Below, piece by piece: positions 723 through 41,800 of a stretch of DNA of 54,163 bases (its first letter is position 1; every line of letters starts with the position of its first letter). The stretch is taken from NCBI GenBank assembly GCA_944350485.1, contig CALVPE010000019.1, positions 1 to 54,163 of the forward strand, in the 5' to 3' direction. Under the pieces are notes generated by a model. The model searched no databases and was not told the DNA's origin. It saw only the letters and a program-made list of their open reading frames with translations. The DNA comes from an uncultured Bacilli bacterium (GTDB lineage: Bacteria; Bacillota_I; Bacilli_A; RF39; UBA660). The position numbers were made by a program, and so were the translations under genes.

Positions 723-794
723 AATATCATCTCTCATTATACTATAATAATAGTAACAAATTTTTCTTATTTTTTCAAGAAGTTTATAATTTTT

Positions 795-2471: not shown

Positions 2472-2479
2472 AATAGCAC

Positions 2480-4231: not shown

Positions 4232-4239
4232 ATATCCTC

Positions 4240-4533
4240 CTAAAATAAATTTTCTAATTCTTTTTTTACTTTCTTATTATCTATATTATTTAGTATAGCA
4301 TTTATCTTTTGTTTTTTATAGTCTAATTTTAATTTTTCTTCAAAATCTAATAATTTTTGTTCAATTATTTTTAATTGTTTAAAACAAGCATTTCGACTTA
4401 TTTGATATTTTTCACTTATTTCTGTATAAGATAAGTTATTAAAATAATATTCTTTAAAGTAAATTTGTTGTTTTTCAGTTAATAAAGAACTGTATAAATC
4501 AAATAAATTATTTAAATATATTACTTTTTCCAT
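4240..4533 (-). CDS. ylxM: YlxM/UPF0122-family putative DNA-binding protein
   Basis: 97 aa. The motif LTEKQQIYFKEYYFNNLSYTEISEKYQISRNACFKQLK is the typical YlxM HTH. The start abuts the ftsY stop. Confidence 0.85.
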   Translation of the reverse strand: MEKVIYLNNLFDLYSSLLTEKQQIYFKEYYFNNLSYTEISEKYQISRNACFKQLKIIEQKLLDFEEKLKLDYKKQKINAILNNIDNKKVKKELENLF

Positions 4534-5670
4534 CTACATCATATCCTTAAATAAACCATAAATATATTTTTCAATATCAAAAGATTCTAAATCATTGATT
4601 GTTTCTCCAAGCCCGATATATTTAACAGGAATGTCTAATTCTTCTTTAATAGCCAGAACAATACCACCTTTAGCTGTTCCATCTAATTTCGTTAGGATAA
4701 TACCGGTGACATTAGTTATTTCTTTGAAGTTTTTAGCTTGGCTAATCCCGTTTTGACCAGTTGTTGCATCAATTACTAATAAAGTTTCCTGAGGGGCATT
4801 TGGTATTAAACTACCAATTACTTTATTCATTTTCTCAAGTTCTTTCATTAAATTAATTTTATTTTGCAAACGTCCTGCCGTATCTATTAAAATAACATCT
4901 ATATTTTTTTCTTTAGCGATTTTTACTCCATCATAGATAACACTTGAAGGATCAGAATTTTCTTTTCCTTTAACAAACTCACATCCTACTCGTTTACTCC
5001 ACTCTTCTAGTTGTTCAATAGCTCCAGCTCTGAATGTATCACCTGCTACCATTAAAACACTTTTACCATCTTTTTTTAATTTGTTAGCAATTTTACCAAT
5101 CGTGGTTGTTTTTCCAACTCCGTTTACACCAATGAATAAAATAACAGTTGGACCATCTTGATTAAAATTAATTTTGTTAGTAATAATTGAGTTATCAACA
5201 TAAATAACAAATAATTCATCAACTATTACTTCTTTTAAATATTCTAAATCCGTGATATTTTCAGTTTTTACTCTTTTCCTTAAACGATCCATAAAAGATA
5301 AAACGGTATTAACTCCAATATCTGCCATAATCAAAATATCTTCTAATTCTTCAAAATATTCCTCCGTTATTTTTTTAGTTTTACTATTTAGAGAAATTAA
5401 ACGATTAACAAAGCCATTTCGACTTTTACTAAGACCTTTTTCATAAAGTTTAACTTCTTGCTTATTTTTTTCCTTTTCAAGTTCTAATTTTTCTTTTTCA
5501 TCATTTTTCTCTTTTTCAAAAACTTTAACTGTTTCTAATTCTATTAAATTATTATTTTCATTTGCAAAATCATCTGTATTATTATTTTCAAACTGATTTT
5601 GATTTTTTAAATCATCATTTATTTCTGTTTCTTTTTTAAATAAATTTTTAATATTTTTAAATAAACCCAT
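4534..5670 (-). CDS. ftsY: signal recognition particle receptor FtsY
   Basis: SRP GTPase motifs GVNGVGKTTT, DTAGR and TKLDGTAKGG. N-terminal acidic low-complexity region. Strong RBS GAGGAGG. Confidence 0.95.
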   Translation of the reverse strand: MGLFKNIKNLFKKETEINDDLKNQNQFENNNTDDFANENNNLIELETVKVFEKEKNDEKEKLELEKEKNKQEVKLYEKGLSKSRNGFVNRLISLNSKTKKITEEYFEELEDILIMADIGVNTVLSFMDRLRKRVKTENITDLEYLKEVIVDELFVIYVDNSIITNKINFNQDGPTVILFIGVNGVGKTTTIGKIANKLKKDGKSVLMVAGDTFRAGAIEQLEEWSKRVGCEFVKGKENSDPSSVIYDGVKIAKEKNIDVILIDTAGRLQNKINLMKELEKMNKVIGSLIPNAPQETLLVIDATTGQNGISQAKNFKEITNVTGIILTKLDGTAKGGIVLAIKEELDIPVKYIGLGETINDLESFDIEKYIYGLFKDMM

Positions 5671-10021: not shown

Positions 10022-10214
10022 ATTAAATTTCCTCCTTTTTTGATTACTATTATATTTTATCAAATATTTAATAAAATACAACTACTTTTTTTCATTTTTT
10101 TAATAAAGCTTTATTTATTACTATTTTTAAATAACAAAATTATTTATTATATTGAATTATATTTATAATTACTAATCTTAAACTAGGTGTTATTCAAAAT
10201 AGTATAATTAATTT

Positions 10215-12284
10215 TTAATTACCGCTTTTTTTAATTATTTCAGCAGCAATATTAGTAGGTACTTCTTCATAATGATCAAATTGCATTATGTAGTTTCCTC
10301 TACCTTGAGTATTACTTCTTAAACTTGTTGCATAACCAAACATTTCAGCAAGTGGTACCATAGCACTAAGTTTAATAGCATTACCAACATTTTCTTGTCC
10401 AAGTGGACGACCTCTTCTTGATGTAATGTCGCCCATAACATTACCAAAATATTCATCTGGTACTGTCACATCAACTTTCATAATTGGTTCAAGAAGAATT
10501 GGTTTACATTTATTTTTAGCTTCTTTTAAGGCAAAACTAGCAGCAATTTTAAAAGCCATTTCATTGGAATCGACTTCATGATACGATCCATCAAATAAAG
10601 TTGCTTTAATATCAATCATTGGATATCCAGCAAGAATACCTGTTTGTAAAGCTTCTTGTAAACCTTTATCAACAACTGGAATATATTCTCTTGGTACAAC
10701 ACCACCTACGATTGCATCAACGAATTCATATCCTTTATCAGGATTTGGTTCAAATTTAACCCAAACATGTCCGTATTGTCCACGACCACCAGATTGTTTA
10801 ATATATTTACCTTCACAATCACCCATCTGCTTAATAGTTTCACGATAAGCAACTTGTGGTTTACCAATATTAGCTTCAACCGAAAATTCTCTTTTCATAC
10901 GATCAACTATAATATCTAAGTGAAGTTCACCCATACCAGCAATAACAGTTTGACCTGTTTCTTGGTTAGTATGTACTTTAAAAGTTGGATCCTCCTCAGC
11001 TAATTTTTGTAAAGCAAGTCCCATTTTTTCTTGATCTGCTTTTGATTTAGGTTCAACAGCAAGTTCAATAACTGGTTCTGGAAATTCCATATTTTCCAAA
11101 ATAACTGGTTTCTTTTCATCACATAAAGTATCACCGGTCGTGGTATTTTTTAAACCAACAGCAGCAGCAATATCTCCCGTATAAACATCCGTAATTTCGG
11201 TACGATTATTAGCATGCATTTGTAAAATACGTCCAATTCTTTCTTTAACATCTTTAGTTGAATTTAAAACATAAGAGCCACTTGATAAATGTCCTGAATA
11301 AACACGGAAGAAAGTCAAACGCCCAACAAATGGATCAGTCATAACCTTAAATGCTAAAGCACTAAAAGGTTCATCATCACTTGGATGTCTAACTGTCTTT
11401 TCACCACTTAAAGTTGTTCCTTCAATTGAAGCAATATCAAGAGGTGAAGGTAAATAATCAATAACGGCATCAAGTAATAATTTAATACCTTTATTACCTA
11501 AAGCTGTACCACAAAGAACTGGGAAAAATTTAACATCAAGAGTTCCACGACGAATTGCTTTTTTAATCATTTCAACGGAGATTTCTCCACCATCAAGGTA
11601 AGTCATCATCATTTCATCATCAAATTCAGCAACAGCTTCAATTAATTCTTCACGTTTTTCTTTAGCAATATCAACTAAATCAGCTGGAATTTCAATTTCC
11701 TTAGCATCTTCTTCTGGTTTTCCATCATATTCATAAGCCTTCATGGTAACTAAATCAATTACACCACGAAAATCAGATTCAGCACCAATTGGCCACTCAA
11801 TAGGTTTAGCATTAACACCTAAACGACTGTCAATACTTTTTAAACTATAAACAAAATCTGCCCCCATTTTATCCATTTTATTAGCAAAAATAAGTCTTGG
11901 AACCATGAATTCTGTTGCTTGACGCCAAACAGTTTCTGTTTGTGGTTCAACACCAGCTTGAGCATCGATTAAAGCAACAGCTCCATCTAGTACTCTTAAA
12001 CTACGACTAACTTCAACAGTAAAATCAACATGGCCTGGGGTATCAATAATATTTAAACGATATTTTTTCCAAAAGGCAGTTGTTGCTGCACTAGTGATAG
12101 TAATACCTCTTTCTTGTTCTTGAGCCATCCAGTCCATTTGTGATTGACCATCATGAGTTTCACCAATTTTATGGATTTTTTTTGTATGGAATAAAACACG
12201 TTCTGTACAAGTAGTTTTACCTGCATCAATATGTGCCATAATTCCAAAATTTCTTGTCATCAATAATGAAGTTTCACGAGCCAT
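10215..12284 (-). CDS. fusA: elongation factor G
   Basis: [22 protein letters not shown] and NKMD motifs, with full-length EF-G architecture. The start is set at MARETSL. Confidence 0.98.
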
Positions 12285-12300
12285 AATAACTATATCCTTT

Positions 12301-12768
12301 CTACCAACGATAATGTGCAAAAGCCTTATTAGCTTCAGCCATTCTATGAGTATCTTCTCTCTTTTTTACAGCGCCACCAGTTCCATTAGCAGCATCAATT
12401 ATTTCATTTGCTAGATTTAAAGACATAGAATTTCCTCCTCTAAGTCTAGCATAATTAACTAACCAACGAAGACCTAAAGTTTGACTTCTTTTACCATCAA
12501 CTTCAATTGGCACTTGATAGTTAGATCCCCCAACACGACGTGATTTAACTTCTAATTGAGGTTTAATATTTTCTAATGCTTTTTCAAAAATATTCATTGG
12601 TTCTTCACCTGTTTTTTCTTTTATAATATCAAAAGCATCATATAAAATCTTTTCTGCTTTACCTTTTTTACCATCAAGCATAATACGATTAATTAACTTT
12701 GTAACTACTTTTGAATTATATATTGGATCTGGTAAAACATCTCTTATTTCAGCACGTTTTTTACGCAT
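12301..12768 (-). CDS. rpsG: 30S ribosomal protein S7
   Basis: 155 aa with the conserved S7 sequence ([15 protein letters not shown]...AFAHYRW). Position in the str operon. AGGAGG RBS. Confidence 0.97.
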
Positions 12769-15346: not shown

Positions 15347-18300
15347 TTATTCAACTGATTTTAAGGCTTCAATAAAATCAATCTTTTTTAATTTAAAATG
15401 TGTAAATACTTGAACAATAACACTAAAACCTATAATAGTCAAACAAGTAAGAATATAACTATACCAATTAATAAAATGGAAAAATAAGATATTATCAGTT
15501 TCTGCGACATTCATGACATAACTATGTAAAAATACTCCTAGTAAAAGTCCAAAAGCAATTCCAAAAATAGTTAACATAAAGGTTTCTCTATATACATAAT
15601 TAGAAACTTCTTTATCATAAAATCCTAACACTTTTAAAGTTGATATTTCTCTTACTCGTTCGGTGATATTAATAGTTGTTAAGTTATATAAAACAATAAA
15701 AGCTAAAAGACAAGAAGCAAAAATGATTAAATAAACAATTTTATTTAAACTATCGACCATAATAGTAAAAGTTTTTAAATTATCACTTGTAAAATTAATA
15801 GCACTTACTTTATTATCAGAAATCCAATTAGTAGCTAAATTTTCTTCATTAACATCATCTTTTAAATTAGCTATGATCATATTATAAGAAATATTTTTTT
15901 CCATCATATTTTCATAACTTTCCTTAGTCATATACATGTAGTGCAATGTATAATTTTCAACTATTTCACTTACTTTAACTAAATATAATTCATTTTGATT
16001 ATTACGAATTTTTATTAAATCACCTATTTTTGCATTTAATAACTTAGCCATCTTTTCAGTTATGACAACTCCGTCTTTGGGAAAGATAAATTTTTTATTT
16101 ACTTTACTATTTAAAGTTACATACTGATTATGCTTAGTTTCATTTTCAAAAACCATCAAGTAAACATCATGAGAAATATCTTTAGCATCAAAGGTAAAAG
16201 ATTCTTGATAAATTGGTAAATAATTAATAACTCCACTACTATTTAATTTTTCTTTTAATTCTTTTGATAACTCTTGATAATTATTTTGCATAACGAATAA
16301 AGCATCATAATGTATTATTTCTTCATATTGTAATTTAATAAGTTTATTAATACTATCTTTTAATCCAAAACCTGTTAAAAGAAGTGCAGTTGATCCAGCT
16401 ATCCCTAAAACTGTCATGATAATTCTTTTTTTATAACGAAACATATTCCGAACAGTTACTTTACTAGTAAAAGATAAACGTTTCCAAAAGAAACTAACTT
16501 TTTCAAGCAAAACTTTTTTCCCTTTTCTTGGAAGTTTTGGACGAATTATATTAGCTGGGTTATTTCTTAATTCCTTTTGACAAGACAAAATAGTTATTAA
16601 AAACATCATAGTTAAAAAAGAGAAAACTAAAATTAGAAAAGGAATAATTTTAATACTTACTTCTAATTGAGGTAGTATGTAGTTAGAATGATAAACTTGA
16701 TAAACTACATTAGGAATAATTGTATAACCTGCTAATAATCCAGAAGTAATTCCAATAATAGCTGCAAAAAAAACATAAAATATATAACCACCCATGATTA
16801 AACTACGACTATAACCTAAAGATACTAAAGTTCCTATCTCGCCTCTTTCTTCTTCAACCATTCTAGTTAGGGTATTAAAACACATCAAAGCAACAACTAA
16901 AATAAAGAAAACTGGAAATACTTTGGCAATTGAATCTACTTTCATAGCATCTTCATAGATACTTGTATAACCATTATTACTAGTTCGATCTAACAAATAC
17001 CACTCGGGTTTTTCAATTTCTTTTAAAGAATCTTTCGCATCTTGAATTTTTTCTTCTGCTTCCAAAGTCTTTTCTTCTAAAGTTTTTACACCTTGATTAT
17101 ATTCAGATAAACCAATTTGATAACTTTTTTCAGAATTATCTAGTTTAATTTTAGCTTTTTCTAATTCTTTCTTACCATTAGTGATTTGTAAATAATAATT
17201 ATTTTCTTCTTGAGTAATTGTTTTTTCAGATATTTCTAGGGATTTTTTAGTTTGAATTAAAGTTGAATAAAGAGTTTCTAACTTTTTTAAAGATAATAAA
17301 TTTTCTTGATAAATTGAATAATTTGGATCAGTTGTATCCATATTATTTAACTTTTCTTCTAAAGTATTTATATTATTTTTTGTCTCTTTTAAAAGATTTT
17401 CTAAATTTTCTTCTTGTAATTTATACTCTAGCAAAGTATTTTGATAAGCAAGTTTTCCTTGTTCTAATTTTATTTTGGATTCTTCTAATTTCTTTTTACC
17501 ACTTTCTTCATTTTCTAGCAAGAGTTTTTTAGAAGCATTGTAATCTTGCCATCCAGAATCTAACTCTTGTCTTGCTTTTTTTAAAGTTAAATAAGCTTGA
17601 TTTAAATCTTTAGAAGCTTTATCTTTTTCAACTTGAAATTCTTCTTCTATTTTTTGAATTTCTTTCATAGCTGTTTCTAAAATTTCTTCATATCTTTTTG
17701 TTTCTTGAATAGGTTTTAATTTTAAAATTTCTTTTTCTAAGGCTTCTAAACTTTCTTGATAAGATCTTTCATAAGAATTTTCTTCTTGGGTATTTTTACT
17801 TATTAAATAAACTTCGGTTATAATATCAGATTTAAAATTATCGTAAGGGATATAAATAAATGATTGTAATTTACCATTACCAATTGTTGCTATTCCTTTT
17901 TCCTTACTTAAATAGGAAGATGAATTAACTAAACCAACAACATCATAATCAACAATTTCTAAAATACCATCAATTGATAATTTACTTAAATGAATTTTAT
18001 CTCCTAATTTAAAATAGGTAGCATCTGCTAAACATTCATAATTATTTTTAATTAATCTTCCCTTTACTAAAGTAACTTGATTTAAATCTTTTAAATAAGC
18101 ATGAACACGAATAGCTTCTCCTGATACTAAAGCATCAACACTGTAACTTGGAATAACTTTTGAAACATGTTCAAGCTTTTTTAAAGATGACACATCTTCA
18201 TCAGTTAAGCCTTTCGTACTAGTTATTTTATAATCCATTAAATTAGTCTTATCATAATAATTATCTAAAGTTGTTAAAATATCAGGAGAACTTTCTCTTA

Positions 18301-20870: not shown

Positions 20871-20947
20871 TGGCGTCCCCGAGGTGATTCGAACACCCAA
20901 TCTTTCGCTTAGGAGGCGAAGGCATTTTCCTATTATGCTACGAGGAC
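20871..20947 (-). tRNA. tRNA-Arg (anticodon CCU), CCA encoded
   Basis: The minus strand reads GUCCUCGUAGCAUAAUAGGAAAAUGCCUUCGCCUCCUAAGCGAAAGAUUGGGUGUUCGAAUCACCUCGGGGACGCCA. It has a 7-bp acceptor stem, a GGUUCGAAUC-like T-loop and an anticodon loop CUCCUAA. Confidence 0.9.
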
Positions 20948-29629: not shown

Positions 29630-30070
29630 ATGAATTTAGAAGAATTACAAATTAAAAAATTAAATAAATTAGCAACTATTCCAACTTATGGAACCGAGTA
29701 TTCAGCTGGCGCTGATTTATATGCTGCTATTGAGAAAGATTTAGAAATAAAACCTGGCGAAACAATCATGATTGGAACCGGTCTTGCGATGGCTATTCCC
29801 ACTGGTTATGTTGGTTTAATCTATACTAGAAGTTCCCTCGGAACTAAAAAAGGTTTAGCTCCAGCTAATAAAGTTGGTGTCATTGATAGTGATTACCGAG
29901 GCGAAATCAAAGTTCCTTTGTTCAATCAGTCAAAAGAAATTCAAACTATCAGTAAAAATGAAAGAATTGCTCAAATCATTTTTACCCCTTACTTAAAAGC
30001 TAATTTTCATGAAACTAAAGAACTTGATGAGACAATACGAGGTCAAGGAGGATTTGGTTCAACTAACTAA
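29630..30070 (+). CDS. dut: dUTP diphosphatase
   Basis: dUTPase motifs AGADLYA, GVIDSDYRGE and RGQGGFGST. AGGAG RBS. Confidence 0.93.
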   Translation: MNLEELQIKKLNKLATIPTYGTEYSAGADLYAAIEKDLEIKPGETIMIGTGLAMAIPTGYVGLIYTRSSLGTKKGLAPANKVGVIDSDYRGEIKVPLFNQSKEIQTISKNERIAQIIFTPYLKANFHETKELDETIRGQGGFGSTN

Positions 30071-30081
30071 ATCTTTTTTTC

Positions 30082-30110
30082 TTGCATTTAATTTTAACAT
30101 ATTGTATAAT
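30082..30110 (+). promoter_or_regulatory. sigma-70-type promoter
   Basis: TTGCAT (30082-30087), a 17-nt spacer ending in TG, then TATAAT (30105-30110). Confidence 0.65.
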
Positions 30111-30131
30111 ATGGAACTGCTGGAGGTAATT

Positions 30132-31154
30132 ATGAAAAAAAATATCATTACTCTTGAAACTATGAAAGAAGATTACAAACTATTAAAACATATCTATGAG
30201 TTATATATAAGAAATTATGGTAACAAAAAAAATATCAAAGAACTTGCTGAATTATTTGGAATAACTATCCAAGAATTTATGGAACTAGTAACATTTTATC
30301 TTGAGAAAAATCAAGACTGTGCAAGCATGGCCTTTATATTTGATAAATTAATGCTCTTAGAAAATGAAGAAGATATTATAATTTTTCTAGTTAAAGAAAA
30401 TTTAACTTATGAAAAATTAAGACAAAGTCTCCCTGACTATATAACTATTTATCGACCCGATCTCTTATTTAATGAAAATGAATTTAATAATATTATGAAA
30501 AAATTAAACATTTATAAAATATATAAAGAAAGTTTAAGTTCAAAATATAAAAAAAATTCAAAAAATGCAGAGCCTTTTAATAGGGAGTTAATTCAAAGGT
30601 TTATCAACTCTAAATATACTTTAAAAAAATTTAGTTTTCTTTATAAAGTTCCTTTAGGAATATTTAAAACCGAAATTGCTCATGTTAAAAATCATGATCC
30701 CCTTTTATATCAAAAATATTTAGAAAATTATCAATTAAAAGAAGCCATGAAGAATGAAACAATTGAAAATGATGTTCTAGCTATTTTGAAAAAGATAAAA
30801 GAATTAGGAACTAACTTTAATTCTATTGACTTTTTTAATTTAACAGATTATAGCCCAATTGAAATAATTGAAGCAGCTGATAGAATTTTAAATCAGGAAG
30901 ATGATAAAATTTTCAGAAGATTTATTTCGGTTTATAAAACGATAAAAATATATTCACCATACGAAACTAATCAAATCTTCACAGATAAATTAGTATTTTC
31001 TATAAATGGAAATAGCATTGAAATAACAGAAAATGATAAACATAACATTGTAAATTATTTAAAAGAAAATGATTTTCCTATTTCAACTATTACTTTTAAA
31101 GATGCTTGTTTAAAATATTATAATGGAATATTATTTAATGAATTCGTTAAATAA
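30132..31154 (+). CDS. hypothetical protein
   Basis: The start is set at the ATG after the GGAGG RBS (MKKNIITLE...). The track's longer version overlaps dut and the promoter. No family recognised. Confidence 0.6.
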   Translation: MKKNIITLETMKEDYKLLKHIYELYIRNYGNKKNIKELAELFGITIQEFMELVTFYLEKNQDCASMAFIFDKLMLLENEEDIIIFLVKENLTYEKLRQSLPDYITIYRPDLLFNENEFNNIMKKLNIYKIYKESLSSKYKKNSKNAEPFNRELIQRFINSKYTLKKFSFLYKVPLGIFKTEIAHVKNHDPLLYQKYLENYQLKEAMKNETIENDVLAILKKIKELGTNFNSIDFFNLTDYSPIEIIEAADRILNQEDDKIFRRFISVYKTIKIYSPYETNQIFTDKLVFSINGNSIEITENDKHNIVNYLKENDFPISTITFKDACLKYYNGILFNEFVK

Positions 31155-31960: not shown

Positions 31961-32566
31961 TTAATCTTTAGTCTTTTTATCAATTAAAACAGCATCAATA
32001 GTTTTATTATTATCTTTAATTATTTCTTTTTCAATTACTATATCTTTTTTGCTAAAAATATAGCCACATATTTCTAAAAAAGCATAAATCATTATAACAA
32101 GACCAATAGCTTTAAAAGCTAAATTTGTTTCTAAAATAGTATATAAACCACCTACTATTAATAATAAAGATATAGTTAATAAAATCCAAAATTTGCTAGT
32201 TTTCTTACTAAGATATAAAGCATTTATTAAACGATTAATACCACTGAATAAAATCCACCCACCTATCACTAATCGAACTAAAGCTTCAATTACTCCAGCT
32301 AAAAAAATAAAAACAAGTCCTATTACAGCTAAAATAATTCCCAAAATCATATCATTTGAAGAAGTATTATTATCTTTTTTTACATCTAAATAATTTTTAA
32401 TGCATTTAAATACACCTACAATAATAATTAAACTGCCTATAACATAAGAAATAAATAAAACAACTACATCTGGTTTAGTAAACATGATAGCTCCTAAAAT
32501 CAAAAATACAATTGAACTTACTAAAGACATTAAACTCGAATAAGCTTTTACTTTTATTTTCATCAT
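31961..32566 (-). CDS. DUF308/HdeD-like integral membrane protein
   Basis: About six hydrophobic helices with the paired-helix pattern typical of HdeD-like proteins. The family call is tentative. Confidence 0.5.
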   Translation of the reverse strand: MMKIKVKAYSSLMSLVSSIVFLILGAIMFTKPDVVVLFISYVIGSLIIIVGVFKCIKNYLDVKKDNNTSSNDMILGIILAVIGLVFIFLAGVIEALVRLVIGGWILFSGINRLINALYLSKKTSKFWILLTISLLLIVGGLYTILETNLAFKAIGLVIMIYAFLEICGYIFSKKDIVIEKEIIKDNNKTIDAVLIDKKTKD

Positions 32567-32685: not shown

Positions 32686-33804
32686 TTAATTTTCCTTATA
32701 TTCTGTTAATTTAACTTTTGTCGTTTTTTCTTTACCATCTCTTATATAAGTAAGGGTAATAGTATCACCTGCATTATATTTATATAACTCATATCTTAAA
32801 TAAGCAATATTATCAACTTCTTCATTATTTAATTTTGTAATAACATCTCCTTTTTTAAGATTTGATTTACTAGCTCCACTTTCCCCTGTTACTTCAACAA
32901 CTACAACACCTGATGTGATATTTTTATCAAGCATAATTCCACTTCGATATAAAGCATAAGTATCAGTTGCATTTAACATACTAATACCAAGCATTGGTCT
33001 TACAATTGTTTTATTATTTTCAAGATTTTCGATATGAGTCATTGCATATTCAATTGGAATTGCAAATCCCATATTTTCAACTTCTGTTTGAACTAATTTT
33101 AAAGAAACTATTCCAATTACTTCACCAGTTGCATTTATCAGAGGTCCACCACTATTTCCTGGATTAACAGCAGCATTTGTTTGTAAAACTTTCATAACCC
33201 AATCACTTGTATTTCCTGATAAACTAACTGTTACTAAACGATCTTTTCCTGATAAAATACCGTCCGTTACTGTACCTCGAAATTCATAACCAATAGGAGA
33301 ACCAATTGTAAAAACAGGATCACCAATCTTTGATTTTTCACTGGTTCCAATAACAGCTACATCAAGAACGTCACTTTTAGCTATTCTTACAACTGCCAAA
33401 TCTAAATATTCATCACTTCCTAAAACAGTTCCATCAATCTTTTTATCATCACTTCTAATTAAAACAATCTTAGTAGCTCCAGCTATAACATGATGATTAG
33501 TTAAAACATAACCATACTTATCATCAGTTTTATAAACAAAACCACTTCCAGTTGAAGTTAAAGAATCATTCTTATAATTTTCAATCATCATAACAGCATC
33601 ATAAACCTTTTCAACACTAGCAGATAAAGAACCATCATTAACAATAACTGTTCCACTACAAGCTTTACAACTATTTTGACTATTACCATTAGTATTTTCC
33701 TGATAAACATTTGTATTAATAGCTATATAATACATCACAAGTCCACCTAATACAAAAGCTACAAATAAATAAATAACTAAATTAATTTTATCTTTTTCTC
33801 TCAT
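32686..33804 (-). CDS. htrA: HtrA/DegP-family serine protease with PDZ domain
   Basis: N-terminal TM anchor, the catalytic triad context TNHHV ... D ... GNSGGPL, and a C-terminal PDZ domain. Confidence 0.92.
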   Translation of the reverse strand: MREKDKINLVIYLFVAFVLGGLVMYYIAINTNVYQENTNGNSQNSCKACSGTVIVNDGSLSASVEKVYDAVMMIENYKNDSLTSTGSGFVYKTDDKYGYVLTNHHVIAGATKIVLIRSDDKKIDGTVLGSDEYLDLAVVRIAKSDVLDVAVIGTSEKSKIGDPVFTIGSPIGYEFRGTVTDGILSGKDRLVTVSLSGNTSDWVMKVLQTNAAVNPGNSGGPLINATGEVIGIVSLKLVQTEVENMGFAIPIEYAMTHIENLENNKTIVRPMLGISMLNATDTYALYRSGIMLDKNITSGVVVVEVTGESGASKSNLKKGDVITKLNNEEVDNIAYLRYELYKYNAGDTITLTYIRDGKEKTTKVKLTEYKEN

Positions 33805-33805
33805 C

Positions 33806-34735
33806 TTAATCTAACTCCTTTATTTCTAAATAATTTTTAGGAAATCCCATTCTATCTAAAACTTTATCTATTTTAATACTATGTAAATTCAAATCTAAAT
33901 TTTCTAAATTATGTCTTATCTCTTCAATCATATTTTTAAATTCTTCTTTATTTAACATTTGCTTCATGACAATTATTAAAGCAAATAAATCATTTTTACC
34001 ATATAAATACTCATCATCCATGAATGGAATATTCAACAATTTATGATATTTAGTATCATTTATCTTTCTTTGAGTCTTATTTTCATAAACAATATCTTCA
34101 TGTGCACATAAATTTCGATAATTTGATAAAATCGTTAAATAATTACCAAGAACTTCAATATCTAAATTATAAATTTCAGCTATTCCTATTTGATCTTCTT
34201 TCTTTAAAATAGAATACAACTCTCCAACAATCCCAAACGATAACACTTTTACTAAAACCCATAATGGTATATAACCATAATTATTTAAATAATGGGCGGT
34301 TGCTGAATGTTGTGGGGCATTAATATTAATTTGTCTTTTCATTTTCTTTAAAATATCATTTACTTGTTTAATCTTTTCACGATTAGAAGTAAAATTTTTG
34401 GGAGTCAAATACTCTTTCTCACGATAACCATATTTTAAAGATAATTGATAACTAATAACCGATTTAATATTATTTTCAATAATCAAAATATTTTTAAAAA
34501 TGATATTTCTAAAGGTTCGATCAAATAAAAACAAACTATATAATTCTTCAAAAGTAGTTCCACTTATATATTGTCTGTCAACACTACTTTTCATAAACAA
34601 ATGCCTATATCCATTTAAAAAGAAATAATTTTCCTTAAATAAAATATTTTTAGCATATTCTAGATCATTTATAACTAACCCTTTATTCCTTAAAATCTCA
34701 ATTTGTTCATTTAAGGTTTTAAACTCCTTTTTCAT
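33806..34735 (-). CDS. Abi-like protein (Abi_2 / AbiD-AbiF-like family)
   Basis: About 300 aa. The N-terminus (LNEQIEILRNKGLVI) and the motif NYRNLCAHED are characteristic of the Abi_2 family. GGAGG RBS. Confidence 0.75.
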   Translation of the reverse strand: MKKEFKTLNEQIEILRNKGLVINDLEYAKNILFKENYFFLNGYRHLFMKSSVDRQYISGTTFEELYSLFLFDRTFRNIIFKNILIIENNIKSVISYQLSLKYGYREKEYLTPKNFTSNREKIKQVNDILKKMKRQININAPQHSATAHYLNNYGYIPLWVLVKVLSFGIVGELYSILKKEDQIGIAEIYNLDIEVLGNYLTILSNYRNLCAHEDIVYENKTQRKINDTKYHKLLNIPFMDDEYLYGKNDLFALIIVMKQMLNKEEFKNMIEEIRHNLENLDLNLHSIKIDKVLDRMGFPKNYLEIKELD

Positions 34736-34885: not shown

Positions 34886-35701
34886 ATGAGTTATAAAGAT
34901 ATAGAATACAGTGAATTCATTAATTGTATATTTAATGAATATTTAAAAAGAAAACAAGAAAATAATTTATTAAATCGTGATATCATGCTTTTTAAAAATA
35001 TAATTACTTTTTATTTTCAAAAAGATCGATCTGATGCTTTTCAAGATATTATTGATAATTTTAAAGAATTATATATTTTAGATGAATCAAGAATTGAACC
35101 AAATGTAACTTATGAAGAAAAATTAGGCTTAGGACTTGTTTATGATTATATTAAAGATTTTGATTTTTTAAAAGATAATTTTAATATTTTTGTTATGTCT
35201 TTAAAAATGCATTCCCTTTTATATTCAAAATGTTTAGGTAGTAATTTTGGAGGTCAATTAAGAACTACTAATGTAATTTTAAAAGATTTAAATATTGATA
35301 TTCCTGATCCAATTACAACCATTAAAATTTTTAATAATTTCTTAAATCCTCAAAAATCTAATCAAGTCTTTGAAAAATATTTTGAACATAATCTATTTGG
35401 GTACTTAGAAGATTGTATTAAACTATGTATAAATTTAATTAAATTACAACCATTTTCAGATGGCAATAAAAGATGTTTTCGAGCTTTATTAAACCTTTTA
35501 TTTAAAAGAGTTAATATTCCTCCTATTTTTATTGATTTAAACGAAAGACAAGAATATAAAACCGCTTTAATAAAAGCTTTAGAAACTAATGATTATGATG
35601 ATATTATCAAATTTTATTATTACAAAATATGTGATGCTATTATCCTTTTAGATTTAGAAAATATAAAATTTAAATCAAGTAAAAAGTTAATAAAAAAATA
35701 G
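34886..35701 (+). CDS. Fic-fold protein with a degenerate active-site motif
   Basis: A flap-like GGQLRTTNVILKD segment. The motif position reads QPFSDGNKRCFR (35447-35482), where canonical Fic has HxFx(D/E)GNGRxxR. Confidence 0.7.
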   Translation: MSYKDIEYSEFINCIFNEYLKRKQENNLLNRDIMLFKNIITFYFQKDRSDAFQDIIDNFKELYILDESRIEPNVTYEEKLGLGLVYDYIKDFDFLKDNFNIFVMSLKMHSLLYSKCLGSNFGGQLRTTNVILKDLNIDIPDPITTIKIFNNFLNPQKSNQVFEKYFEHNLFGYLEDCIKLCINLIKLQPFSDGNKRCFRALLNLLFKRVNIPPIFIDLNERQEYKTALIKALETNDYDDIIKFYYYKICDAIILLDLENIKFKSSKKLIKK

Positions 35702-35745
35702 ATGATTTTATCCAAGTATGTTATAATTATACTAAGGAGTGTTTT

Positions 35746-36282
35746 ATGAATAATTTTAAAGAAAAGAATTTTTTTACTTATCTTTCTTCTAAAAATATTT
35801 CAGCTAATGAAATAACTTACTTAAAAAAATTATATAAAGAATATAAATTGTTTGATAGTTATACTTGTCATAATATTAATAAACAACAATTAGATTTCTT
35901 AGAAGATAAAATTTATACTATTAAAGGAAAGCTATTAAATGACTTTGAAAGAATAAAAACAGAAATACTTAAAATTCATAAAGTCTTCATAACAAGTGAT
36001 AATTTAGCCAAACAAGCTTCAAGTAAATATATTAAAGAAATACTTTCTTTATTAAATAAAGAAGATGTAATTAATCAACCAGAAACTCTTTTTTATATCA
36101 AAAAATTAATTACAATTATTCAAACTATTTTAGATATGAATATTACTTTTTACTATGCCTCTTACTGTGTTTTTATGGAAAGATATCGTAACTTAGAACT
36201 TAATTATGATAATAAATTAGAATATAAATCATTTGATAATACTATAAAAATAAAAAGAATAAAAAGTGAGGAAGAAAGATGA
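35746..36282 (+). CDS. hypothetical protein
   Basis: 178 aa with an AAGGAG RBS. Its stop overlaps the next start (ATGA). No family recognised. Confidence 0.6.
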   Translation: MNNFKEKNFFTYLSSKNISANEITYLKKLYKEYKLFDSYTCHNINKQQLDFLEDKIYTIKGKLLNDFERIKTEILKIHKVFITSDNLAKQASSKYIKEILSLLNKEDVINQPETLFYIKKLITIIQTILDMNITFYYASYCVFMERYRNLELNYDNKLEYKSFDNTIKIKRIKSEEER

Positions 36283-38027
36283 GTATTGAGAATTTAATTA
36301 AAAAAATAACAAATCTTACTCAAGAAATTAATTTACAAATAGAAAATATTCAAACTAAATTAAATCAACTTCAAATAGTAAATATTATTTCTAATAAATT
36401 AAATACAAATTTAACTGATTTAAATCTTGACTTTTTTAAAGAAGGATTATTAAAAATTGAAGAAGAAAAAGAAGTTTTAAAAGATTTAAAAGATTTAAAT
36501 GATATTCAAGAAGTTTATCCTTTTTTAATTGATTCTAGTTTTGAAAATACTGGTAATAAAAAAGAATATTTAGATCTTTTAGAAAACTTAAAAATGAAAA
36601 TAAATCAAAAGTTTTTAGAAAAAAATAATTATTTAAATGAAGAATTAATTAAATTAACTAAACTAAAAGAAAATTATTTAAAACTTAATCATTACTTAAC
36701 TAATTTAAATAATCTAAGTTATCAAGAAATAGAATCTTTATATGATTTAATTGAAATATTAGAAATTAATTTAGAAGATAAATTAGAAATTATTAAAACA
36801 ATTAGTAAAATTAATTTAAAAAATTTTTTAGATAAAAAAGTAATTACTGAAACACCTCTTGAAGTTGAAGTTACTCAAGAGAATATGGATGATTTTATTA
36901 GAGAAACTGAAGAAAATGAAAGACTAATTAAAAGAGAATTACAAAAAGAAGATGATGATCTTTACACTAAAAAAACTAATCAATTGTTAGAATTAATAAA
37001 AGAAACAAAAATAATTCTCGAAGAAAATCAAAATATAATTGAAGAATTTAATAATTTAGATAATAATATTCAAGTTTATATTAGAAATAATGATATTATC
37101 AGTGCTACAGCTACTAATCCTTGGCTTGATTTCAATAGTCTTAAATTATTAGTAACTATCATTAATGAATTATTAGATTTACAAGATTTATTAGAATTTG
37201 ACTATGATAGATCAACTATTGATGATATTATTATTTCTTATAAAGAATATTTAAATAATTACAAAGAAGGTTTAAAAAAATATCAACAATTGAAAGAAAA
37301 GATTACTGAAGAAGAAAAACAAGAAGTAATTGAAGTTATTGATGAAGAAAAAGAAGATTATGATGATGATTTTAACTCTTCTGATATAAAAGACTTTCCT
37401 ACTTTCTTAAGTACTAGTAAAAATATGTTTATTTTTGCTTTAGATAGTAATGGTAATAATTATGTTGAAAATGATTTAAATTCAGGAAAAAATATCGAAA
37501 TATTAGGTAAAAAACAAGGTTTATTAAAAACAATTTCTATATTTTCAAGAAATTATGTTGGTCGCGGTGTTATAAACTCATCAACTAATAGTAGTAAAGA
37601 AAATAAAAATAATCGTGATAAAAAAGTTTATAAAAATTTAAAATCTAAAGATTATGATGAAGAATTTAAACCAAGACGTTTTAGACCATCTTATGGACAA
37701 AGAACTGGTTATTTAATTATTCCAGTTTGTAAAGAAAATTGTCAAAAGATTTTTGATTTATATGGTAATGAAAATATTTTACAAAACGGAAGAATTGTCA
37801 TGTTTATAGGTGTTATCTATACAACTAGTGATGATAAAAGTGATTATGATAAAGTTATTAATAAACATTTATATAATAATCAAGAGTATATAAGAAAAGT
37901 AAAAGAACTATTTATAAATAAAGATACAAGAAAAGAAGAATTAAAAGAAATAATTGATAATGGTATGAGTGATTGTTATAACTTAATTAAAAGTTTAACA
38001 AAACCAAAAGGAAAGGTAGTTGAATAA
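36279..38027 (+). CDS. hypothetical coiled-coil protein with a distinct C-terminal globular domain
   Basis: 582 aa. The N-terminal ~350 aa is heptad-rich and acidic. The C-terminal ~200 aa is mixed alpha/beta (NMFIFALD...RRFRPSYGQRTGYLIIPV...RIVMFIGVIY). No family recognised. Confidence 0.65.
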   Translation: MSIENLIKKITNLTQEINLQIENIQTKLNQLQIVNIISNKLNTNLTDLNLDFFKEGLLKIEEEKEVLKDLKDLNDIQEVYPFLIDSSFENTGNKKEYLDLLENLKMKINQKFLEKNNYLNEELIKLTKLKENYLKLNHYLTNLNNLSYQEIESLYDLIEILEINLEDKLEIIKTISKINLKNFLDKKVITETPLEVEVTQENMDDFIRETEENERLIKRELQKEDDDLYTKKTNQLLELIKETKIILEENQNIIEEFNNLDNNIQVYIRNNDIISATATNPWLDFNSLKLLVTIINELLDLQDLLEFDYDRSTIDDIIISYKEYLNNYKEGLKKYQQLKEKITEEEKQEVIEVIDEEKEDYDDDFNSSDIKDFPTFLSTSKNMFIFALDSNGNNYVENDLNSGKNIEILGKKQGLLKTISIFSRNYVGRGVINSSTNSSKENKNNRDKKVYKNLKSKDYDEEFKPRRFRPSYGQRTGYLIIPVCKENCQKIFDLYGNENILQNGRIVMFIGVIYTTSDDKSDYDKVINKHLYNNQEYIRKVKELFINKDTRKEELKEIIDNGMSDCYNLIKSLTKPKGKVVE

Positions 38028-39781
38028 TGGAATACGATAAGAGAATAAAAGAAATTCTTGAACAAAAAATTCAAGATTTGCAAATAGAAAGTAATAATTT
38101 AACTAAAAAATATTTAAAAGAAAAAGAAGAAACTAATACTAAATTACACCTAATAAATTCTCTTCTTGATAATCCCTCTTTATTAAAAGACTTATCTTTA
38201 GAAAAATTGCAAGAAATTGAACCAAATATTTTAGAAGATCAATTAAAAAATCTTAAATTTTATCAAATAATTTTAAAGCAGAAAAGAAATTTAGCACCAA
38301 GTTATCTTGAGAAATTAAAAAATATCTTAACAAGTATTAAAGCAAAATTTGAAGAAGATATAGAAAAAATAACTGAAATGTTTGAACATCATCATCTTAA
38401 AGAACAAATTATAAAATTAAAAGATTTATTAAAAAAAGTTCAAATTTATGATTTAAAACCAGATGATATAGATTTATTATCTAATATTTTAATTGAAAAA
38501 CAAAGTATTAAAGAAGTTATTCAAATTATCAAATATTTATCATTAAAAACTCTTCAAAAATTAGATCAACCACCTATTAATATCAATAATGATGAAATAT
38601 TAAAAACTAATTTAAATATTAATGATTTAATTAATCTTTTACAAAAATATAAAATAGATTATAATTTACTTTCTGATAATGCTAAACAAGAACTACAAGA
38701 ATATGGAAATTTAGAAAATATTAATGATATTTTAACAACTTTTAATAAATATTTAGAAATAGATAAATACATAAAAAATTATCCTTTACAAATAGCTAGA
38801 ATTTTAATTTATTCAAATAAAGATAAAGTTAAAAGTATTCTAGATACATATATAAAATATGGTATTAATATAAGCGATAAAACAGATCAAATATTTAAAT
38901 CACCATCCAAGTTTATTGAACGAAAAAGAAAATTTTTACCAAGAACAGGTTCAAATTCCAGTTCTAATTTTAAAGAAGAAGAATTTGGTACTAACGAAGA
39001 TTTTATTCAAAATATTGAATTATTTGCAAATCTTGGTTTAGATATTAAAAAAGCTTATGATAAAAGTTATTGTTATTTTGAAAGACCTCATCAACATATC
39101 TTAATTTGTCTTAAAAACTTTGAGTTATATGGAATAGATAAAGAAGTTTATTTGAAAACTTTAAGCTGCTTTAGAACTCATAAACAATTGGATACTTTAG
39201 ATATGTTTATTGAACTCGATGCTTTTGATTATGTTAAAAATAATATGTCAATGTCATGTATTCCTGTCAATTCACCTACTTTTTATAAATTAACACATCT
39301 TAAAAATCAAGGTATCCAACCAAACGATTTATATATAAGAGGAATTAAATTTCCATATACAATAACTTCCGATGCTAAAGTTTTCCAAGGTATAAATCGA
39401 ACAAATGGAAAAGAAGTAACAAAAGCTTATACACCTATTAATCCAATATTTGAAGAATACGATAAAGTTATAAATAAAAGTCTTAATAACACTATCAATA
39501 TTATTTTAAGTGATAATGATTCTTGTGTTAAAAAGCTTGATCAACAATATATTTCTATTGATCAAAATAATATGCCTGATTATCGTTTATATTTAATAAA
39601 TGGTATTAGAATATCAAGAATGAAAGTTTTAAGATATATGAATACCTTAGTTTATAATGGTTTTTCAGAAAATATTGATATGTTAATGTACGCCATTACT
39701 AAAAATAGTATTTTAACTGAAGAAGAATATAATTTACTTAATACTGAAATAAAAAAAATATTCAATGAATTGAGGAGATAA
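38027..39781 (+). CDS. hypothetical coiled-coil / helical-repeat protein
   Basis: 584 aa. Its start overlaps the previous stop (TAATG). The N-terminal region is coiled coil. It is followed by repeated helical modules containing x-G-I/L-N/D (KYGINISD, NLGLDIKK, LYGIDKEV). Confidence 0.65.
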   Translation: MEYDKRIKEILEQKIQDLQIESNNLTKKYLKEKEETNTKLHLINSLLDNPSLLKDLSLEKLQEIEPNILEDQLKNLKFYQIILKQKRNLAPSYLEKLKNILTSIKAKFEEDIEKITEMFEHHHLKEQIIKLKDLLKKVQIYDLKPDDIDLLSNILIEKQSIKEVIQIIKYLSLKTLQKLDQPPININNDEILKTNLNINDLINLLQKYKIDYNLLSDNAKQELQEYGNLENINDILTTFNKYLEIDKYIKNYPLQIARILIYSNKDKVKSILDTYIKYGINISDKTDQIFKSPSKFIERKRKFLPRTGSNSSSNFKEEEFGTNEDFIQNIELFANLGLDIKKAYDKSYCYFERPHQHILICLKNFELYGIDKEVYLKTLSCFRTHKQLDTLDMFIELDAFDYVKNNMSMSCIPVNSPTFYKLTHLKNQGIQPNDLYIRGIKFPYTITSDAKVFQGINRTNGKEVTKAYTPINPIFEEYDKVINKSLNNTINIILSDNDSCVKKLDQQYISIDQNNMPDYRLYLINGIRISRMKVLRYMNTLVYNGFSENIDMLMYAITKNSILTEEEYNLLNTEIKKIFNELRR

Positions 39782-39782
39782 A

Positions 39783-40076
39783 ATGTTAGATTTTTTAAAT
39801 CAAGTTTTAAAAAAAGAAGATATAAATTTAATACAAGAAAATATTTATGCATCAGATGTTTTTAATCTTAATTGTAATCAAGATGAATGTTTAAAAATTA
39901 TTAAATATTTACAAGAGTTAGGTATTAATAATATTACTGAATTAATAGTTAATCGTTTAGAAATTTTTTTAGATACTCTTGAGAAAATTAAAGAATTAAT
40001 ACCTAGTAATATTAATAAAGATTTAATTAAAAACATAAATGATGATTATATTAATATAGATTATCTCTATAACTAA
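39783..40076 (+). CDS. hypothetical small helical protein
   Basis: 97 aa with a GAGGAG RBS. It starts 1 nt after the upstream stop. It contains the same ELGINNITELI-type module seen in the preceding protein. Confidence 0.55.
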   Translation: MLDFLNQVLKKEDINLIQENIYASDVFNLNCNQDECLKIIKYLQELGINNITELIVNRLEIFLDTLEKIKELIPSNINKDLIKNINDDYINIDYLYN

Positions 40077-40086
40077 TATTTAATTT

Positions 40087-40124
40087 AAATAGTTTAAAAA
40101 CTAATTTTTGAACTATTTTTTATT
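40087..40124 (+). terminator. rho-independent terminator after the four-gene operon
   Basis: Long imperfect hairpin aaatagtttaaaaa / tttttgaactattt followed by a T-run. Confidence 0.6.
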
Positions 40125-40213
40125 TAATTTTATAAATTTAAAAATTTATAATTTTTTTCTACAATTATTATTTAGACATGTTATAATTGTTGTTGTTAAT
40201 TAAAGGAGTATAC

Positions 40214-41800
40214 ATGAAGATTAAACAAAATATAATTAATTTAAAAAATAAATTTAAATTTTTAATAAATAAAGAAAACTTTTCTAAAAAGTATTTAAAT
40301 ACTAATTATAAAGCAAAGATAAAAATAATCTATATAACTATCATTTTTATAGTTATTTTCTTTTGCCTACTAGTATTTAATAATTTTAATAAAAAAGGAA
40401 TTAAAAATATTAAAATTCAAAACACTAATTTTCAGGAAATAGAAATTAGTTGGAATTCTTTAGAAAAATCAGAAAATATAGAAATAATTCTATCAGAAGA
40501 AAGATTCAATCATGATACTATTTTAAATGATTTAAATAATAATAAATTAAATTCAAATAATAAAAGAATTACTGCTAAAAATAAAAATAAAGTTACTATT
40601 AATAATCTTTTATCAAATACAGATTACTATGTTTTAGTAACTAGTTATAAAACTTTTAATAAACAAAAAATATATAATAAAGATTATAAAATTATGAAAA
40701 TCCATACTAGTCCTTTAAAAGTTGGCAAAGTATCTAATCTTAATAGTTTAGATATTACTAATGAAAGTATTAAATTAATCTGAAAAAATTGGACTACTAA
40801 CAATAAAAATCATGATAATAGTAATATTAAAATAACTTATAGTTTATATGAAGTTGATCAAAAAAATAATAATTTAAGTTTAATACAAGATAATATTAAA
40901 AAAAATGAAATTGTTATTAATAATTTAAAATCTTTAACCAAATATTGTTATAAAGTAATCGTTAATGTTTTAATTGATGGAAAAATTATTACTAATTTTG
41001 ATGGTGATTTATTAGAAGTTACTACAAAACCACAAGCTATACAAAATATTATAGCTAAAGAAAATAATAATAATTCAATAACTATTTCTTGGAGTGAAGT
41101 CAATGAAAATAAAGATAATGACATAACTTATTCTTTATATGGATCAGATAGTATTAAAGGTAATTTTAATTTAATTGCTGATAATCTTAAAAGTTTAAGT
41201 TATACTGAGATGGGTTTAACAAATGGGAAAACAAGATATTATTATGTTGTTACAAATGCTAATATAAATGGTTTAAAATATAAAAGTAATCGTAGTAATA
41301 TTGTTGAAGCTACTACTAAAAAAAATCTTTTAAATAATTATTCTAATTTTACTATTGATTATTATAATAATATTAATGATACAGATAATTCTAATAATAA
41401 TCCTGTTTTTAATTATCCCAGTAATGATAATTATTATTCTAGTGAAGAACAAAAAGCAAGAACTATTGCTAAAAATATAGCAAATAGTATTACTGGAAGC
41501 AGTGATTTAGAAAAAGTAAGAAAAGCTGCCCAAGTTGTTTATAATTATTATAAACAAGGAACTTATAATACTACCAGTAAGTATCATAACACTCCTTATG
41601 GAGTATTTGTTGATAAAAAATCTTCTTGTGCAGGAACAGCTAGAGCTTTAGGATTAGTTTTAGAGTATCTTGGTTATAATTGGAAACATCAAAATGAAAA
41701 TAAGTGGACACATCAATGGGTTGTTGTTACTATAGATGGGAAAACTGGTTGGGCTGATGGAATGCTTGGTATGACAGAATATGGTAGTTTTCCTTTTTAA
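40214..41800 (+). pseudogene. membrane-anchored 3x FN3 plus transglutaminase-like-core surface protein, interrupted by one in-frame TGA (40781-40783)
   Basis: Track ORFs 40187-40783 and 41210-41800 are in the same frame. The intervening 40784-41209 is open. The combined product has a TM anchor, three FN3-like repeats and a C-terminal SSCAGTARALG...THQWVVV...GWAD core. Confidence 0.75.

Follow-up and report, generated by a model that had tools for sequence, protein, structure and literature searches.

What does an operon do whose four products belong to no known protein family, and do the genes beside it share in its function? This question is raised by a contig of an uncultured Bacilli bacterium (GenBank assembly GCA_944350485.1, contig CALVPE010000019.1; lineage RF39, UBA660), analysed here over its whole stretch of 54,163 nucleotides (nt), which we call the window. 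An earlier prediction made from the sequence alone (the original prediction) had set five co-directional genes, A to E, beside the Abi_2-family gene lying divergently upstream, and had proposed a candidate defence or conflict system carried on a small accessory island. We found that genes B, C, D and E form an operon, hereafter the cassette, which is conserved as a unit, is fixed in the chromosome, has no known family among its products and evolves at an extreme rate; the Fic-like gene A and the Abi_2 gene are not part of it. The evolutionary rate was the most informative result. Tentatively, and with a probability of about 40%, we read the cassette as a conflict module that is fixed in the chromosome and belongs to the toxin-antitoxin or abortive-infection type.

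Genes B to E form a translationally coupled operon

The five open reading frames (ORFs) of the original prediction were found where it had placed them and with the sizes it had given. Gene A (34886-35701, forward strand; 271 amino acids, aa) is Fic/Doc-like and lies outside the cassette. The cassette, also on the forward strand, begins with gene B (35746-36282; 178 aa) and continues with C (36279-38027; 582 aa), D (38027-39781; 584 aa), which is its invariant core, and E (39783-40076; 97 aa), its last gene. B and C share an ATGA, C and D share a TAATG, and D and E are separated by 1 nt, all as claimed; a ribosome-binding site of the GGAG type stands ahead of every start codon. From the locus coordinates, these tight junctions recur in all related loci. 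B-E is a self-contained, translationally coupled operon.

The 44-nt spacer between A and B contains a putative promoter and ribosome-binding site (35712-35745, forward strand), consisting of an extended -10 box, TGTTATAAT, followed by AAGGAG, so that B-E probably has its own, sigma-A-like promoter; this is read from a window of about 22% G+C, and in such A/T-rich DNA matches to the promoter consensus are not above chance. A terminator had been claimed after E. A strict, G+C-requiring scan detected nothing there, while RNA folding gave a 14-bp stem made of A/T pairs only (about 40087-40124, forward strand; -9.8 kcal/mol) followed by a T-run, TTTTTTATTT, a plausible terminator given the composition of the genome. 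Searches for DNA repeats and operator-like sites around the cassette returned A/T-rich chance matches only.

None of the four proteins had a family match in Pfam, NCBIfam, PADLOC or PHROGs, which bears out the statement that they could not be assigned.

The cassette evolves at least ten times faster than its flanks

We compared the window with related loci carrying the cassette, designated by L numbers. Against L001, the products of the surrounding genes were well conserved (NrdD 92% identity, UvrB 89%, Abi_2 85%, HtrA 80%), and those of the cassette were not (B 49%, D 46%, E 42%, C 37%). Between L001 and L006, the flanking genes were 98-99% identical, with 0.002-0.013 nonsynonymous substitutions per site (dN), 0.07-0.14 synonymous substitutions per site (dS) and a dN/dS of 0.02-0.1. 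In the same pair B, C and D showed 69% identity (dN 0.18-0.21, dS about 0.4, dN/dS 0.43-0.56), and E showed 96% (dN 0.021, dS 0.053, dN/dS 0.40). Between L001 and L010, dS was 0.33-0.69 in the flanks and 0.54-0.69 in B, C and D, whose dN/dS reached 0.72, 1.10 and 0.86, respectively, absolute values above 1 being unreliable with the pairwise counting methods used. Overall, the dN of B, C and D was 20 to 60 times that of the flanking genes, and their dN/dS was 0.4-1.1 versus 0.02-0.1.

The excess was unevenly spread along the proteins. By segment, dN/dS was 0.9-1.7 in residues 1-240 of C and 0.65-1.5 in residues 1-195 of D, and it was 0.2-0.6 for the C-terminal domains in the closest pairs (L001-L006 and L006-L009). 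An independent and cruder measure, taken from 0-fold and 4-fold sites, gave 0.4-1.3 for C and D and 0.03-0.17 for the flanks. The contrast between cassette and flanks, at least ten-fold, is robust. In a second lineage, in which D and E follow the gpr-spoIIP genes, D of L004 and L101 was 51% identical with a dN/dS of 0.5; RNase J was 91% identical in this pair, and the gpr and spoIIP products 66-68%.

Across the 520 clusters of D homologues described below, the ORFs are intact and their lengths and motifs are kept. This holds over hundreds of clusters, in DNA prone to stop codons, and would not result from neutral decay.

The C family carries a candidate RelE/ParE-like domain

C consists of two unlike parts. 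Its N-terminal region of about 360 aa is helical, hypervariable and acidic, with a net charge of -38 over residues 1-400, whereas its C-terminal domain (residues about 380-582) is basic and conserved, with the invariant pattern RxR...RTGY...C.EN...LYGN...Y. Homologues of C from other loci linked this domain to RelE/ParE-type toxins, in each case below the curated threshold: the L019 protein matched Pfam Gp49/HigB-like (E = 6e-4; 20.2 bits, cut-off 23.9), and the L020 protein matched Pfam ParE_toxin (E = 4e-4; 21.4 bits, cut-off 23) and NCBIfam RelE_StbE (E = 0.017). The C-terminal domain of the L020 protein carries the canonical LRSFKGKDYRIIYRV sequence. The L102 protein bridges to the C domain of the window (E = 5.6e-14), and hhalign aligned the window-type with the RelE-type C domains at 46% probability (E = 2e-4), placing the RxR...R strand on RelE strands, with the same strand pattern and basic residues, and skipping a 21-residue insertion. 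On these alignments, the RelE/ParE assignment is of moderate strength for the C family, and the C protein of the window would share it. At 582 aa, and with partners of 178, 584 and 97 aa that match no antitoxin family, C departs from the stand-alone toxin of about 90-110 aa found in two-gene toxin-antitoxin systems. A tblastn search of phages with the C-terminal domain of C gave no match.

C and D may be related to each other in their N-terminal domains, which hhalign aligned at 63% probability (E = 7e-5). The sole DNA repeat shared by the two regions lies out of register and has a low-complexity sequence. A paralogous origin of the two domains is possible, and the helical, low-complexity sequence makes it uncertain.

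B is an all-helical basic protein (pI 9.05). In L001, L006, L009 and L010, orthologues with 43-49% identity take the corresponding place in the operon, and a B profile also matched the B proteins of L019 (E = 2e-8) and L102 (E = 1.6e-10).

D and E are predicted helical-repeat proteins

A HMMER search of 1.84 billion representative proteins with a profile of D residues 193-584 retrieved 520 clusters (at 50% identity) with E <= 1e-3, of which 351 had E <= 1e-10 and 151 E <= 1e-30. Nearly all members are 550-650 aa long, with a conserved region at about residues 200-600, and all those sampled are named "hypothetical protein [Bacilli bacterium]". Among ten longer members none had a Pfam domain. 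A single cluster accounts for 244 members, the longest of their contigs reaching 1.3 Mb. D founds a large unannotated family.

The original prediction had given both large proteins a long acidic coiled coil. Of the two, only C has a long acidic N-terminal part; D has a pI of 7.9, and its AlphaFold2 model (from 25 sequences; mean predicted local distance difference test score, pLDDT, 79) has a multi-helix domain at that end, with long helices forming a bundle of eight (residues 1-178) whose sequence is variable. The model further shows helical repeats at 198-290 and 323-436 and a C-terminal module (500-584) made of a helix, a three-stranded sheet with a beta-hairpin and three helices. Fourteen residues are invariant across 13 diverse members (K207, P293, N329, Y368, G369, D392, E396, Y402, S408, Y522, S530, K533, V534 and R536), the last five of which form a basic motif, Y..G..S[RK]xKVxR, at the junction of hairpin and helix. 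In L019 (2543-4783), a 746-aa homologue of D has this C-terminal module duplicated in tandem, with the motif YNF.G..[IV]SRxK, so that the module seems to be a domain in its own right.

When D and its conserved part were compared with PDB sequences, as single sequences or as profiles, nothing meaningful was returned, and Foldseek found no match to the D model at E <= 0.001 in PDB or BFVD. The best Foldseek matches, not significant, were the TALE protein dHax3 (3v6t) and human mTERF (3n6s, 3n7q) at E of about 1-4, the two mTERF structures having E = 2-4, a probability of 0.2-0.4 and a TM score of 0.2-0.4. Pfam pointed in the same direction: when 22 homologues of D and E were scanned, mTERF was the sole family matched by more than one (4/22, best E = 0.0012, all below threshold), the other matches were singletons, and none of the 22 reached the gathering score of mTERF (PF02536).

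E is an acidic helical protein, and its homologues follow D in every locus examined. It aligned weakly by hhalign with three repeat positions of D (E = 0.005-0.02), a likeness to one or two repeat units, and one E homologue had a sub-threshold Pfam match to mTERF. By sequence, D and E are best described as helical-repeat proteins with an mTERF-like motif, short of established membership in the mTERF family, and the D/E part looks like a nucleic-acid-binding solenoid. To our knowledge, mTERF proteins have been described from animal and plant organelles, and not from bacterial operons.

The cassette is fixed in the chromosomes of uncultured Bacilli

A word-index search with D had returned 51 relatives, greatly under-reporting the family compared with the exhaustive profile search; with C it returned one or two, low-complexity words having swamped the index. 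At least eight chromosomal contexts of uncultured low-GC Bacilli contain B-E as a unit. In the group of the window (L001-L003 and L006-L010) the order is htrA-Abi_2-(DUF308), B-C-D-E, (RhuM), uvrB-radical SAM, and the cassette occupies this same site between htrA and uvrB in every close relative examined. In L004, L013 and L101 (a 1.05-Mb scaffold), D-E follows rpsT, gpr-spoIIP-yqxA-like and a gene for a 259-289-aa helical protein, and precedes znuA, rnc and rnj. L018 uses the site of this second context, with genes for 164-, 200- and 512-aa proteins (the last being C), D-E and an overlapping AlkD-like gene. The remaining arrangements are a gene for a 226-aa protein followed by C-D-E-asnB-tsaEBD (L017); B-C-D-E-uvrA-lgt-trxB-whiA (L019); an SNF2-type helicase gene, genes for 88- and 803-aa proteins, B-C-D-E and a gene for a 396-aa protein (L020); B-C-D-E followed by genes for a 249-aa protein, a HerA-like ATPase and a 212-aa protein, between ffh and gmk/cysS (L102); and B-C-D-E between a PBP-mraY-ftsW cluster and leuS (L103).

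The pair D-E was present in all loci examined, and the counterparts of B, D and E in the different loci were matched by profiles of these proteins. The order B-C-D-E, with its protein sizes, is common to six locus groups: that of the window (the window, L001, L006, L009 and L010), L019, L020, L102, L103 and L017. Partners of the core can be exchanged. The first gene of L017 is not homologous to B, and in L018 two unrelated small genes precede C-D-E. C is present in most loci and is replaced in the lineage of L004 (9116-9985), L013 (8483-9352) and L101 (9212-9991), a prevalent gut lineage, by the 259-289-aa helical proteins, which lie ahead of D-E and after the gpr-spoIIP-yqxA-like genes. We considered these proteins of L004 and L101 as homologues of B or C and rejected the idea: there was no detectable similarity to either, and no RelE-like domain.

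The hosts are metagenome-assembled genomes of uncultured Bacilli or Erysipelotrichaceae from human gut and rumen, and B-E is restricted to such uncultured low-GC Bacilli of gut and rumen. The original prediction had taken the neighbourhood for a small accessory island. This view had to be given up, as all close relatives share the synteny of the cassette, which has housekeeping neighbours and recurs in the contexts listed above. It is chromosomally fixed and vertically inherited rather than a mobile island.

Some loci carry further genes beside the cassette. In L102 (10291-13307), a HerA-like ATPase (HerA_C, E = 4e-173) is flanked by the 249- and 212-aa proteins, both without assigned function, in a co-directional run after the cassette. 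The AlkD-like gene of L018 (8353-9081; DNA_alkylation) overlaps the end of E. L020 has a 1416-aa SNF2/DEAD helicase and the 803- and 396-aa proteins, which also lack an assigned function (1-5533 and 10167-11357). These extra co-directional genes may be lineage-specific additions to the system. In L006, the RhuM-family gene beside the cassette (12087-12416) is truncated to 109 aa, and a RelB/ParE toxin-antitoxin pair (15413-15995) has been inserted downstream of the radical-SAM gene, which indicates that the htrA-uvrB neighbourhood accepts small accessory insertions.

The Fic-like and Abi_2 genes do not belong to the cassette

Gene A is Fic-like, as had been proposed: it scored 27.5 bits against Pfam Fic (cut-off 24) and also matched FICD structures (E = 2e-5), phrog_11900 (E = 3e-12) and PADLOC PDC-S04, a single-gene candidate (E = 2e-6). 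Its active-site motif, QPFSDGNKR at residues 188-196, deviates from the consensus HxFx(D/E)GN(G/K)R: in the alignment, Gln188 stands where human and nematode FICD (HPFxDGNGR) have the catalytic His. The protein is probably catalytically inactive, or uses other chemistry. No Fic gene was found in any related locus bearing B-E, including L001, L006, L009 and L010, so that among these loci it is confined to the genome of the window, and a tblastn search of a phage collection with gene A gave no match. Gene A is a degenerate Doc-like Fic protein, inserted in this lineage outside the cassette.

The divergent gene upstream (33806-34735, reverse strand) was likewise correctly named as Abi_2/AbiD, matching Pfam at E = 3.7e-42 and PADLOC AbiD at E = 5.3e-61. 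It nevertheless behaves as a core gene. Its 85% identity between the window and its relatives lies between those of HtrA (80%) and UvrB (89%); among relatives its identity ranges over 85-99% and its dN/dS is about 0.03-0.1. We examined 80 metagenomic loci (L021-L100) with Abi_2 orthologues at 60-85% identity: htrA directly follows Abi_2 in 76 of them, and the contigs of the other four end early. In none of the 80 did B, C, D or E lie within 8 kb of Abi_2. The adjacency of Abi_2 and cassette is thus restricted to the genus-level group of the window, and Abi_2 is a core-like gene with a conserved htrA partner, unrelated to the cassette. This pairing, unexpected for a family named after abortive infection, suggests a housekeeping role linked to HtrA.

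In the window, the Abi_2 stop codon and the htrA start codon are 1 nt apart (32686-34735, reverse strand). All close relatives have a gene for a DUF308 membrane protein between Abi_2 and B; that of the window is found on the other side of htrA (31961-32566, reverse strand) and the Fic gene occupies the vacated place, a local rearrangement.

Other features of the window

Downstream of the cassette, two ORFs of 198 and 196 aa (40187-41800) belong to a single gene, whose product is membrane-anchored and has FN3 repeats and a transglutaminase-like domain; the relatives have a RhuM-family gene in its place. The two ORFs are separated by a single in-frame TGA (40781-40783) at a conserved Trp of an FN3 repeat (ESIKLI*KN compared with EISWNS and TISWSE). 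Genetic code 4 was ruled out as an explanation: TGA closes uvrB and B, and TGG serves as the Trp codon 66 times. As TGA is a genuine stop in this genome, the codon is a nonsense mutation (making a pseudogene), a sequencing error or a read-through site.

A 381-aa protein without a family match is encoded between dut and a LysM gene (30009-31154). Its ORF overlaps dut by about 60 nt, so the true start is probably later. Two tandem paralogues of 343 and 338 aa (34-42% identity) are found at the same place in L001 (2206-4283). A homology of E to this family was considered and rejected (hhalign probability 2%). The sole tRNA of the window is tRNA-Arg(CCT) (20871-20947, reverse strand), and an Rfam scan of the whole window (1-54163) returned no RNA family at gathering thresholds.

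Discussion

Rapid evolution of B, C and D combined with a RelE/ParE-like domain in C fits a conflict system, and the modular exchange of B and C for unrelated proteins speaks for it as well. To this extent the original prediction holds, though the likeness to RelE/ParE is weak and the cassette is no mobile defence island. In such a module, B-E would probably encode one hetero-oligomeric complex, with D and E as the invariant core, C as the usual partner and B as a small accessory protein of helical structure. In C and D, the N-terminal domains, helical and fast-evolving, could provide a specificity or sensor surface and hold the RelE/ParE-like effector domain inactive, while the putative nucleic-acid-binding D/E part might serve targeting or autoregulation. 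A trigger derived from an invader would then release the effector, which might act on translation or on DNA. A bolder form of this model, which we consider unlikely, would make D/E the first bacterial family of mTERF-like solenoids and, together with B and with C as a RelE/ParE-type domain on a hypervariable stalk, a new class of fixed, vertically inherited immune or sensor complex, its specificity surface engaged in an arms race and its effector directed at translation or DNA.

Several observations weigh against a conflict module. Unlike typical defence systems, the cassette keeps to fixed sites whose neighbours are housekeeping genes (such as gpr-spoIIP, uvrA/uvrB, tsaE and leuS), and its distribution is not the sporadic one of defence islands or mobile elements. 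No integrase, transposase or phage gene lay beside it in the loci examined, and no relative of D was found by tblastn in INPHARED phages or PLSDB plasmids, nor by a profile scan of IMG/VR viral contigs. PADLOC v2 gave two singleton, chance-level matches among 33 diverse homologues of B, C, D and E. No domain assignment in the cassette reaches a curated threshold. The C protein of the window itself had no RelE/ParE match in Pfam and NCBIfam scans, sequence and profile searches of PDB with C and with its C-terminal domain returned nothing meaningful, and the AlphaFold2 model of that domain (from a three-sequence alignment) had a pLDDT of 47 and was unusable, which made a Foldseek search with it uninformative. 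L004, L013 and L101 keep D-E without a RelE-like partner, so the putative effector is not essential to the function of the core, and in this lineage D, though among the fastest genes, is only moderately above its neighbours. The rates themselves come from counting methods that are crude at about 23% G+C, and low constraint on helical or coiled-coil sequence could be another cause of high dN/dS.

Many of the same observations are what one would expect of a lineage-specific housekeeping scaffold, in which the helical and coiled-coil proteins C and D, with E and B, organise nucleic acid (nucleoid, ribosome or RNA) or serve sporulation or DNA repair, their divergence reflecting low constraint. This alternative, the main rival, has a real chance of being right, although we would not call it probable. 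The cassette is chromosomal and syntenic in many species, as the size of the D family attests; it has housekeeping neighbours in all contexts and no sign of mobility in its surroundings or in phage, plasmid and viral collections; it would be read from a sigma-A-like promoter; and D-E persists where the RelE-like partner is lacking. It lies directly downstream of gpr-spoIIP-yqxA in L004, L013, L018 and L101, and DNA-repair genes adjoin it in the window group (uvrB), in L019 (uvrA) and in L018 (the AlkD-like gene overlapping E). These links to sporulation and repair are not constant, however, the genomic position varying between genera. For a housekeeping scaffold, one would expect a dN/dS far below the 0.4-1.1 measured over whole genes, some windows of which exceed 1, and the sporulation genes gpr and spoIIP of the same lineages evolve at 0.05-0.35. 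Nor would a scaffold be expected to exchange partners for non-homologous proteins or to carry a RelE/ParE-like domain, which has no known structural role. Of the core-genome synteny and housekeeping function that the original prediction had together set against a conflict system, the synteny was found in part.

We give a much smaller chance to a polymorphic-toxin or bacteriocin-like locus, by analogy with LXG toxins of the type VII secretion system (T7SS) and with colicins. C would then be exported, its helical part being a delivery or receptor stalk and its C-terminal domain an RNase of the BECR/RelE fold, and D, E or both would act as immunity protein or chaperone. A toxin-like domain does end a long helical protein with partner genes directly after it, diversification is rapid at a fixed locus, and the small helical proteins B, upstream, and E, downstream, recall the Lap and WXG-like partners that flank LXG toxins in T7SSb loci. 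The variation, however, is reversed, the N-terminal stalk being hypervariable and the C-terminal domain conserved; D, the component conserved most widely, has about 600 aa, a size far beyond that of known immunity proteins; signal peptides, transmembrane segments and LXG or WXG100 domains were looked for and not found; and secretion genes were absent from every locus examined. The larger defence system first proposed, with Fic and B-E and possibly Abi_2 as five or six genes on an accessory island, is the least probable of all: adjacency and shared direction in the window, along with the PDC-S04 and AbiD matches, speak for it, and co-occurrence effectively refutes it. The Fic gene, its catalytic His replaced, is absent from every related B-E locus and separated from B by a spacer with its own -10 box, and Abi_2 evolves like a core gene and is tied to htrA, never to B-E, in the metagenomic loci.

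Whatever its function, the cassette comprises the D family and three partner families that go undetected in Pfam, NCBIfam, PADLOC, PHROGs and PDB and are common in human-gut and rumen Bacilli without cultured representatives. Should it be a conflict system, it would show that modules of the immune type can become fixed at one chromosomal site and pass down vertically, and so be missed by guilt-by-association in defence islands; the RelE/ParE-type domain would then also be deployed in a new architecture. As a scaffold, it would amount to a cell-biological complex that defines the clade and evolves unusually fast. Under either reading, two clues are concrete and testable: bacteria may have mTERF-like repeats, and the rates of cassette and flanks contrast sharply. 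A bacterial mTERF-like family would be interesting in its own right.

Comparison with known systems

We found no description of such a system in the literature, and no cassette protein falls in a described family. Two of the likenesses concern the neighbours of the cassette. The Abi_2 gene matches the AbiD/Abi_2 family (HEPN-type) strongly, but it is an htrA-coupled core gene here rather than a sporadic defence gene, and outside the group of the window it is unlinked to the cassette. Gene A has the Fic fold, a Doc-like motif ending in GNKR and the match to PDC-S04, but carries Gln188 in place of the catalytic His and is unrelated to B-E. As for LXG/T7SS toxins, their LXG domain, WXG100 partners and T7SS neighbours are all missing from the cassette.

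D and E resemble mTERF and TALE proteins, which bind nucleic acid along a solenoid of helical repeats, in being all-helical with motifs of about 30-35 aa (..N.e.i..il..L...Gi....). They differ in that all matches are below threshold and that D has additional N- and C-terminal domains. With the RelE/ParE toxins (RelE, HigB/Gp49 and ParE), the C domain would share its strand pattern, its basic residues and a tight operon with partner genes. It ends a protein of about 580 aa, whereas the free toxins have about 90 aa, and it has an insertion of about 20 aa, a conserved helical tail and no recognisable antitoxin. Further differences are the four genes of the cassette, its fixed chromosomal site with conserved synteny, and the lack of the RelE-like domain in one lineage. 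In the fusion of a putative effector to a fast-evolving, non-catalytic region that might act as a sensor, C recalls CapRel. If the conflict reading is right, the cassette combines an unprecedented architecture with an unusual, fixed distribution.

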